In this document: one piece after another, positions 766 through 3,700 of the stretch
Layout of the letters: each line of letters opens with the position of its first letter
How positions within the stretch are numbered: position 1 is the stretch's first letter
Origin: a virus
Lineage: Duplodnaviria > Heunggongvirae > Uroviricota > Caudoviricetes
Length of the DNA: 7,422 nucleotides
Strand: one strand, 5' to 3'
Virus record (IMG/VR): IMGVR_UViG_2778261179_000004
Program-made: the position numbers and the translations under genes
Notes under the pieces: generated by a model
What the model saw: the letters and a program-made list of their open reading frames with translations, nothing else
What the model was told of the DNA's origin: nothing
Databases searched by the model: none

Positions 766-3700
766 TCAGATGATACTGATACCTGCTGTGGATTTTTTCA
801 TCACCACAACCAGCAGATCGCTGATACTGGTTGTTGGTGTCCAGTTATTCGCTCCTGATGAAGATACGGTGAATGTCAGTGTCAGCGTCCCCTGTCCGGC
901 AGGCATATCTATAACTGAGGAAAATACGCCCTGAGCATCCGTCGTGGACTGATTAAAAATCTCCTGACCATTGCGGGTCACTCTTAACCGGCAGGTTGAA
1001 TACCAGTATGACTGTTGGTTATTACTGTTGAAATTCTCATGCTTACCACCGCGGAATAACACTGGCGGTATCATGACCTGCCGGTCAAATTTCTGATCAT
1101 CACTGATTCTTACCGTGATGGTGCCACTGGCATAACTGTTCGTGCGGGGGAAAGACTTGCTGACCGTTTTGACAATATCGCCTTCAATCTGATTGGCTGA
1201 CAGTTTCCCCTTAATCTGACAGTTCTCATTAATCGTGACGTTGTTGAGCGTCCCGGAGTTCGCATTCACACTGCCACTGATATCCGCATTTTTAGCAGTC
1301 AGCTTTCCGTCCGGTGTCAGGGAAAATGCCGGTGGATTTCCACCGCTGGTAATGGTGGGGGCCGTCAGGCGCTTCAGGAACACGTCGTTCATGAATATCT
1401 GGTTGCCCTGCGCCACAAACATCGGCGTTTCATTCCCGTTTGCCGGGTCAATAAACGCGATACGATTGGCGGCAACCAGAAACTGGCTCAGTTTGCCTTC
1501 CTCCGTGTCCTCCATGCTGAGGCCAATACCCGCGACATAATGTTTGCCGTCTTTGGTCTGCTCAATTTTGACAGCCCACATGGCATTCCACTTATCGTTA
1601 GCATCCTTCCACTCTTTCGAAAACTGCTCCAGTTTGCTGGCGTTATCCTCCGTCAGGTCGACTTTTTCCAGCAGCTCCTTGCCGAGATGGGATTCGGTTA
1701 TCTGGCCTTTGAAAAAATCCAGGTAACCTTCCGCATCATCGCTCGCCCGACCGACGGCCTCCACGAATGCCGATTTGCCAACGGTGTTCACACTGCGGAT
1801 ATAAAAGTAATAATCATGGCCCGGTTTGATATTGATACTGGCGGCTATCCAGTACAGCCCCGTGCCAAGGTAGCGGGCTGTGGTTTCAACCTGCCTGATA
1901 TCGGTAATCCGCGTTTCCGAGAACCAGAACTCAAATTGTACCATCGGATCATAAACCGCAAGATGCGGCGTGGCGGTTATCTGAAAATAGCCCGGCGTCA
2001 GCTCAATCCGCGACGGCGCTGCCGGTGCGGCAATCCGGAACGATACCGATGCCGGATCGCCCTGCTGTCCCCACGCATTTACCGCCCGGACCGTCAGCGT
2101 GTAACGCCCCAGCGCCAGCTGCCTGAAGCGGTATGTGGTTTCCGTCGTCCGGGCCGTGCTGACCAGCCGCTCACTGCCGTCATCCGCTGTTACGGTCAGA
2201 CGGAGCAGGAAGCTCACGCCCTTCACCACCTTCGGCGTGTCCCAGCGCGCCAGCACCTGATACTCCCCGCTGTCTGCGGTGACTTCGGCGGTCAGGTGCT
2301 GCACCGCGGGCGGCGTGACACCATTCACCGTGCCGCTCTGGTCGCCGTCAAAGTGCGCCCCGTTATCCACGATGGCCTCTTTTTCCGGTACATGCTGCAC
2401 GGCAGTGATGGCATACGTGCCGTCATCGTTCTCACGGATACTCACGCAGCGGAACAGGCGCTGGCGCAGCGTCGGCAACTTCAGCCCCCATACGCTGTAT
2501 CCGGCAACGCCGTCAGGAACACGGCTCACTTTCACCTTCACGCCGTCGGTGACGGACTGGACCTCCACGCTGACCGGATTGCCACTTCCGTCAACCAGGC
2601 TTATCAGCGTGGTACCGGAGGATGGCAGCGTGATTTCACGGTCGAGCGTCAGCGTCCGGGTCTGGCTGTTCACCGCCAGCACGCGCCCGCCGGTGCGGAT
2701 ACCGGCATAGTCATCATCGCAGATTTCAATGACATCGCCCGGTACATGGCGAAGCCCTTCAGCACCCACGCTGAAGTCCACGGTCTGCGTTTCCAGCAGC
2801 TCCGTTTTAATCAGCCACAGCCCGGCTCGGTGTGCCTGCCCCCGGCTGGTACAGCCAAAGGCATCCATCTTCGTGACGTTACGACCGTAACGGGCAATGG
2901 CCTGCGTGTCCTCCACAAGCTCTGTCGCCGTCTCCCAGCCGTTATCCGGGTCAATCCAGTTCACCTCAACGGCATTATGGCGGTCCTTGAGGGCGCTGAA
3001 GCTGTAGCGGAACGGCGCGCCATCATCCGGCATCACCACATTACTGCGGTTATAGGTCCACACCTTATCCGACGGTCGGTCCTGCACGAACGTCAGCGTC
3101 TGCCCGTTCCATACCGGCATACAGCGCATCGCCGAGCAGAAATCACTGAGCACATCCCACGCCTTGCGCTGTGTGGTCAGGTACGCATTACAGGTGATGC
3201 GCGGCTCCGTGCCGCCAAAGCCGTCCGGCACTGACTGGTCGCAGTACTGGCCGATGACATACAGCGCCCATTTATCCACATCCGCCGCACCAAGACGTTT
3301 CCCCATGCCGTAGCGTGGATGGGTCAGCATATCCCACAGACACCAGGCCATGTTATTGCTGTATGCTGGCTTAAACGTTCCGTCCCAGATACCGCTGTAT
3401 TGCCGCGTCTGCGGGTTATAGTTCGACGGCACCTGCAGAATACGCCCGCGCAGATGATAATTACGGCTCACCTGCTGGCTGCCGAACTGCTCCGAATCCA
3501 CCTGTACGCCGACCAGTGCCGTGTTCGGGTAGCACTGTTTCACATCGATGATTTCGGTGTATGACGACCAGAGCGTTTTGTTCTGCAGCTGGTCTGTGGT
3601 GCTGTCCGGCGTCATCCTGCGCATCCGGATATTGAACGGGCGCGGCGGCAGGTTATCCACCACCACCGAGGCCAGATACTGCGAGGTGGTTTTGCCCTTA

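Follow-up and report, generated by a model that had tools for sequence, protein, structure and literature searches.

The C-terminal receptor-binding domain (RBD) of the J protein is documented in several lambdoid phages and in one engineered variant. Lambda gpJ (PDB 8xcj, 8xck and 8iyk) is a protein of 1132 aa whose RBD binds LamB. Phage 434 uses another RBD allele, within a J protein of 1137 aa, and its receptor is OmpC (classical h434 host range; PMC11101478). The variant called A8 is an engineered fusion in which lambda gpJ received its C-terminus from a natural gpJ variant (Brödel et al. 2024, Nature, PMC11338833). The reason given for building A8 was the down-regulation of lamB in gut-adapted E. 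coli, in which OmpC is expressed (PMC11338833). It was tested in ΔlamB ΔompC cells with plasmid-borne ompC variants (PMC11338833), and the tests used a P2 side-fibre chimera targeting LPS (Brödel et al. 2024, PMC11338833). The results reported are that: (i) A8 reaches about 90% of the cells with MG1655 OmpC and with EDL933 OmpC; (ii) delivery is efficient for 21 of the 23 OmpC variants by A8, by 1A2 or by both; (iii) when provided with suitable side fibres, A8 delivers to UTI89, to an ST131 strain and to a K. pneumoniae ST258 strain (PMC11338833).

Of 54 outer-membrane knock-outs, phage phi330 (vB_EcoS_phi330, Stx2a) fails to lyse one only, the Keio ΔompC mutant, and Plac-ompC restores lysis (PMC12502783). 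In the AlphaFold3 model of the phi330 J protein, the hairpins E953-S962 and A1015-P1020 contact OmpC (PMC12502783). The OmpC dependence of phi330 was attributed to J by modelling, not by genetics, and a contribution of the side fibres is formally possible there. [quoted passage not shown] A 2026 bioRxiv study of receptor prediction deals with GpJ of the Drexlerviridae type, the C-terminal domain of lambda being explicitly excluded.

The gene J described here is in effect a natural counterpart of the engineered A8 chimera, joined at the same place. It is concluded, with a probability of about 0.92, that positions 769-1243 are a modular receptor-binding cassette of the A8/phi330/YYZ-2008 type, recombined onto a J gene of the lambda/434 type, and that this cassette binds OmpC and not LamB. 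The junction is real but ordinary: the cassette, the receptor and the modular exchange are all already documented, and no new biology is involved. The practical value lies in a confident receptor prediction.

Gene J and organization of the window

The window, i.e., the whole stretch that was analysed, has 7,422 nucleotides and comes from a virus of the Caudoviricetes (IMG/VR record IMGVR_UViG_2778261179_000004). According to the list of open reading frames and their translations, its minus strand carries the 3' part of H followed by M, L, K, I, J and lom. This is the order H-M-L-K-I-J-lom of the lambdoid tail module, and collinear matches to annotated lambdoid phages cover 100% of it. The features of gene J needed below are:

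766..4164, minus strand: gene J, central tail fibre or tip attachment protein (1132 aa plus stop; open reading frame list, translation and Pfam)
1249..1632, minus strand: fibre domain Phage_Tail_Tip (PF09327), aa 845-972, E=2.3e-34, with the junction at its C-terminal end
772..1143, minus strand: Ig_GpJ_C (PF12421), C-terminal receptor-binding Ig-like domain, aa 1008-1131, E=7.8e-36

The full domain architecture of gpJ is present, i.e., hub domains, two Ig/FNIII domains, the fibre domain and the C-terminal Ig-like RBD. The other Pfam matches are FNIII-A_GpJ (aa 86-207), Phage-tail_3 (aa 330-498), Ig_J (aa 610-714) and Ig_J_second (aa 716-818), and all the matches in J are well over the curated cut-offs. 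The same architecture and the same length of 1132 aa are found in lambda gpJ.

The window has full-length matches to many lambdoid phages, the best being PhiR29_2 (97.1%), PhiR30_1, Turner and 2H10. It must be noticed that J of PhiR29_2 (PV340557) is annotated as two overlapping coding sequences (1266-2693 and 2671-4662) and that translation of the whole span runs into 28 stops, the sign of a frameshift in this record, due either to a sequencing error or to a truly broken J.

On the plus strand, an open reading frame of 564 aa (1540-3234) crosses the GC-rich part of J in antisense. It is most likely due to the high GC3 of J (62-88%) and not a gene.

Identity of the cassette

The region of interest is the following:

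769..1243, minus strand: exchanged receptor-binding cassette of the A8/phi330/YYZ-2008 type, predicted OmpC binder (J aa 975-1132; from nucleotide and amino acid identity; GC 46.6%)

The earlier note had kept open that this C-terminus might be nearly identical to that of lambda J; the identity over aa 975-1132 is 46%. The corresponding values are 47% for 434 J, 81% for phage 21 J and 98.1% for the J of both YYZ-2008 and phi330. The RBD alleles are homologous: the main types have 41-50% of their amino acids in common, and the A8 type and the 21 type have 81%.

Lambda and the present protein have the same Pfam family (Ig_GpJ_C) at their C-terminus; nevertheless, the lambda RBD binds LamB, has a GC content of 54.4% and differs by indels at the loop positions. 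An RBD of the LamB-binding lambda type would be expected to have high identity to lambda J over aa 975-1132, the four receptor-contact loops included; with 46% identity and indels at loop positions, the cassette is not of this type. It is not of the OmpC-binding 434 type either, since the nucleotide identity to 434 is 33-66% across most of the cassette. On the contrary, sequence identity to characterized proteins places it in the A8/phi330 type, and this identity is a direct observation of the present analysis.

The cassette and phi330 J have 155 of 158 residues in common, the differences being N1009S, S1010T and I1132S. In the PDB, a sequence search retrieved the chain named "A8 gpJ 713" (9wca and 9wcb), which is identical over aa 930-1131 and lambda-like upstream. 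The differences from A8 are thus the last residue (I1132 instead of S) and four substitutions located upstream of the junction, between aa 828 and 929 (D/E, K/R, Q/E and N/S). Ile at position 1132 distinguishes the present protein from A8, phi330 and YYZ-2008, all of which have Ser.

A8 is characterized by a lambda-type J body and the same RBD. It differs by its origin: A8 was engineered on Ur-lambda and the present gene is natural. The printed A8 gene (taken from the supplement, machine-read and with dropped characters) aligns to 1425-766; it carries lambda alleles up to 1297, the donor (non-lambda) allele at 1255 and then a match to the cassette down to the stop codon. In equivalent positions, the engineered fusion point thus falls between 1297 and 1255, within the conserved block that also holds the natural junction described below.

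Phi330 and YYZ-2008 (Stx1; Pankowvirus) have the same RBD cassette and a similar lom downstream, while their J body belongs to another lineage (52-92% nucleotide identity) and YYZ-2008 J, with 1159-1160 aa, contains an insertion in the shaft. Phage 434 has 92-100% identity to the window in the J body, in the J-lom spacer and in lom, and only its RBD allele is of another type. Phage 21 has the closest distinct RBD allele (81% of amino acids, about 78% of nucleotides); it differs by another shaft segment (aa ~809-900, 18-61% nucleotide identity) and by a length of 1160 aa.

In the phi330 record (PV189401), J is annotated with 1042 aa (4001-7129) and an overlapping "hypothetical protein" is found upstream (7066-7416). 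The short annotation is probably caused by a frameshift in the deposited sequence. Residue numbers of PMC12502783 are therefore offset by 90 from those of the present J.

Phage SPF_0923 (ON032529; recorded host Salmonella, pig farm) encodes a J of 1132 aa (4501-7899), the last 535 nt of which are 99.6% identical, and an Ail/Lom gene comes next. Its recorded Salmonella host is in line with the report that A8 particles reach a wide range of enterobacteria.

Prediction of the receptor

The suggestion of the earlier note that relatives using OmpC should be considered was well founded, since the cassette matches the J of the OmpC-dependent A8 and phi330. The two hairpins for which contact with OmpC is predicted are:

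1009..1038, minus strand: hairpin of 10 residues, aa 1043-1052, identical to phi330 E953-S962 and predicted to enter the OmpC barrel (PMC12502783)
[quoted passage not shown]

Both are thus kept in the present protein, the contact itself being that of the AlphaFold3 model (PMC12502783). The differences from phi330 at N1009 and S1010 fall in a short loop for which the authors of the phi330 study predict no contact with OmpC (PMC12502783). Entry 9wcb contains three OmpC chains beside A8 gpJ. No paper on 9wca or 9wcb was found in the literature search, thus the nature of the complex is read from the chain names and the sequences. Three independent lines thus point to OmpC: the host requirement of phi330, the 9wcb entry and the delivery tests with A8. 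OmpC dependence and the solved complex are results of others, obtained on an identical or nearly identical domain; for this particular phage, the use of OmpC is predicted from these characterized domains.

The literature search found no paper on the receptors of the closest relatives PhiR29_2, PhiR30_1 and mEp332. The article by Feiss et al. (2022) on phages 21 and 434 makes no mention of receptors, and no statement of the receptor of phage 21 was found.

A few private substitutions might direct the cassette to another receptor, for example OmpF or LamB, or restrict it to a specific OmpC variant. In lambda J, one substitution can indeed be enough to add OmpF to the receptors used (cited in PMC11101478), the OmpC variants accepted by A8 are not the same as those accepted by 1A2 (PMC11338833), and position 1132 carries Ile where the three related proteins carry Ser. 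This explanation is nevertheless improbable, since the C-terminal residue is the sole private change and all of aa 930-1131 is shared with A8. The host receptor of this phage or prophage may thus be predicted, OmpC rather than LamB.

If OmpC is the receptor, the cassette, as a trimer at the end of the central tail fibre, would dock on the trimeric porin OmpC and not on LamB. By analogy with lambda gpJ and LamB, binding would trigger a rearrangement of the fibre, leading to the opening of the tail for DNA ejection. The opening of the RBD base would propagate up the β-prism fibre and the α-helical shaft, as for lambda gpJ with LamB (PMC11101478).

Position of the junction

The nucleotide sequence of J was aligned with those of lambda, 434, 21, PhiR29_2 and YYZ-2008. 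In windows of 90 nt down to J nt 2880, the identity to lambda and 434 is mostly 94-100%, with a lowest value of 86%; for lambda, this level holds in most windows to aa ~957. Across the 90-nt segment with the junction it is 79-84%, and for most of the remainder 33-66%. The identity to lambda is 42-59% over most of the cassette, from about 1194 to near the stop codon. The identity to YYZ-2008 goes in the opposite direction, i.e., from 52-92% in the J body to 96-100% from J nt 2881 on.

In the base-level alignment, the last site discriminating YYZ-2008 is J nt 2871 and the first site discriminating lambda is J nt 2921. For the triplet J, lambda and YYZ-2008, the max-chi2 test gives a breakpoint at J nt 2910-2921 (1255|1244), where the ratio of informative sites changes from 710:43 (5') to 2:198 (3'). 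The p value is 1.5e-158 by the Fisher test and ≤0.001 by permutation. With 434 in place of lambda, the break falls at 1294..1252. The crossover interval is thus 1244-1294 (J aa 958-974), at most about 50 nt from the earlier estimate of about 1300. The proposal that a recombination junction marks the start of the receptor-binding C-terminus is borne out by this breakpoint test and by a C-terminus that is not that of lambda; the junction and its position are direct observations. The crossover lies in a block common to all lineages:

1245..1293, minus strand: conserved junction block of 49 nt (J nt 2872-2920), encoding 16 residues, which holds the crossover and is conserved in all lineages

With reference to 434, the DNA from J to lom differs only across ~770-1250 and is 434-like on both sides, thus the RBD is a discrete cassette. 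The junction is located at the last residues of the Phage_Tail_Tip domain, about 35 residues ahead of the Ig_GpJ_C match. Since it coincides with the end of the fibre domain, the cassette comprises the final fibre rungs plus the RBD.

GC composition of J

The GC counts made by hand in the earlier note are exact: the blocks of 60 nt over 781-1320 have 42-55% (mean 47.96%), block 1321-1380 has 60.0% and block 2041-2100 has 66.7%. The residue number (~955) and the peptide given at the step are also correct. The step near 1300 itself rests on one local peak, however, because the blocks over 1381-1980 are back to 43-63%. A likelihood-ratio change-point scan of J (766-4164), with codon permutation, gave a single statistically supported GC change-point:

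1960..2020, no strand: GC change-point, best split at 1990 (J aa ~725), 0.500 vs. 0.604, reached by 0 of 200 permutations

The best further split, found at 1234 (0.464 vs. 0.522) when 766-1989 is scanned, is not significant (LLR 2.0, permutation p=0.575). The scan gave no support for a step at ~1300, therefore comparative evidence was used instead. With a boundary set in advance by comparison of the sequences, the GC content is 46.6% in the cassette vs. 52.2% in the preceding 745 nt, which is borderline (two-proportion z≈1.9). Divided into the body, J nt 2176-2920 and the final 476 nt, the present J has 60.4, 52.2 and 46.6% GC, respectively, and lambda J has 59.3, 52.5 and 54.4%. In 434, 21 and YYZ-2008, the segment homologous to the final one has 46.6-47.9%. 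The small drop into the last ~480 nt is thus missing in lambda and typical of the other alleles, and is not statistically convincing alone. The junction would not be established from composition alone.

It was also proposed that the low GC is lambda's own compositional boundary, i.e., the edge of the GC-rich left arm, without any mosaic junction. A strong GC break does exist within J, it is common to lambda, 434, 21 and YYZ-2008, and, as judged by GC alone, the step at ~1300 lacks significance. This edge is thus real and shared; its location is about 1990 (J aa ~725) and not about 1300. As an explanation of the C-terminus it is very improbable: the last 158 aa are 46% identical to lambda J, the lambda segment has 54.4% GC vs. 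46.6%, and the breakpoint test is decisive.

The GC break at ~1990 lies near the boundary between Ig_J (aa 610-714) and Ig_J_second (aa 716-818); the GC-rich arm thus ends inside J and not at its end.

Modular exchange and prevalence

The conservation calculated for each column over the 120 best homologues is uninformative: the list of matches is dominated by sequences of the A8 type and of the 21 type. Shaft type was therefore cross-tabulated with RBD type for these 120 homologues, which come from a large protein search. The RBD of the A8 type occurs behind lambda-like, 21-like, YYZ-like and other shafts, and that of the 21 type behind lambda-like and 21-like shafts. A reassortment of RBD among J shafts is thus directly observed.

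These data bear on the possibility that a lambda-type RBD diverged in place, under diversifying selection driven by the host and without exchange of a cassette. The C-termini of J are known targets of host-range selection, and the RBD alleles are homologous, as such divergence would have it. On the contrary: (i) the cassette has 96-100% nucleotide identity to YYZ-2008 and phi330, the J bodies of which have 52-92%; (ii) the same cassette is found behind at least three types of shaft; (iii) the switch in identity is abrupt, within ≤50 nt; (iv) the phylogeny of the cassette does not track that of the J body. Divergence in place is thus highly improbable, and the exchange of a cassette is retained.

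The cassette is one of the most frequent J alleles of E. coli genomes. At ≥95% identity, it is found in about 1,490 records of complete E. coli genomes, with up to 10 matching places per genome, and it occurs in many long-tailed Stx1a/Stx2a phages. The multiple places per genome mean that many co-resident prophages share one RBD allele, an abundant substrate for recombination in J. Among the E. coli examples, those with 3-5 places include strains of the O157 type and bovine strains. Although up to 10 cassette places per genome, in EHEC and other E. coli, are a classic cause of misassembly, a chimera assembled from two co-resident prophages is barely credible, since the same full-length arrangement is unbroken in the independent isolates PhiR29_2, PhiR30_1, Turner and 2H10 and is found as one unbroken match, with up to 97.8% identity, in many complete E. 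coli chromosomes.

In the junction block (1245-1293), 48 of 49 nt are identical between lambda and YYZ-2008. At third codon positions, 15 of 16 are identical in the block vs. 42 of 91 upstream and 57 of 153 downstream, i.e., ~37-46% in the flanks (p=2e-5). This island of identity is a foothold for homologous recombination, by which the cassette would have been joined to the J body of the lambda/434 type within a block common to all J lineages. It is conceivable, though rather unlikely, that the 49-nt block is a maintained recombination linker, as in the modular theory of phage evolution, by which any J shaft would gain any RBD cassette. The same pattern would also arise passively, repeated crossovers homogenizing a block already constrained at the protein level.

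A second variable module is present in J at 1465-1740 (aa ~809-900), which corresponds to the α-helical shaft and the top of the fibre. There, lambda and 434 are 93-100% identical to the present J, and phages 21 and YYZ-2008 are 18-61% identical, with an insertion.

lom and the J-lom spacer

Two features are found downstream of J:

100..699, minus strand: lom, Ail/Lom outer-membrane protein of 199 aa (Pfam Ail_Lom, E=6e-120), of the 434/YYZ-2008 type and not of the lambda type
729..748, minus strand: terminator-like hairpin in the J-lom spacer, immediately past the cassette on its distal side; phage 434 has an annotated terminator at the homologous position

A promoter scan of 1-1500, in search of a lom promoter in the AT-richer cassette, gave no sigma-70-like site. 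Over lom and the spacer, 434 has a nucleotide identity of 92-100%; that of YYZ-2008 is mostly 93-100% and drops to 86-91% at 536-631. The identity to lambda over 176-750 (lom and spacer) is 35-67%, and lambda-like sequence is back at ~1-230 (88-93%). With reference to lambda, the replaced stretch thus extends beyond the RBD, from ~230 to ~1244.
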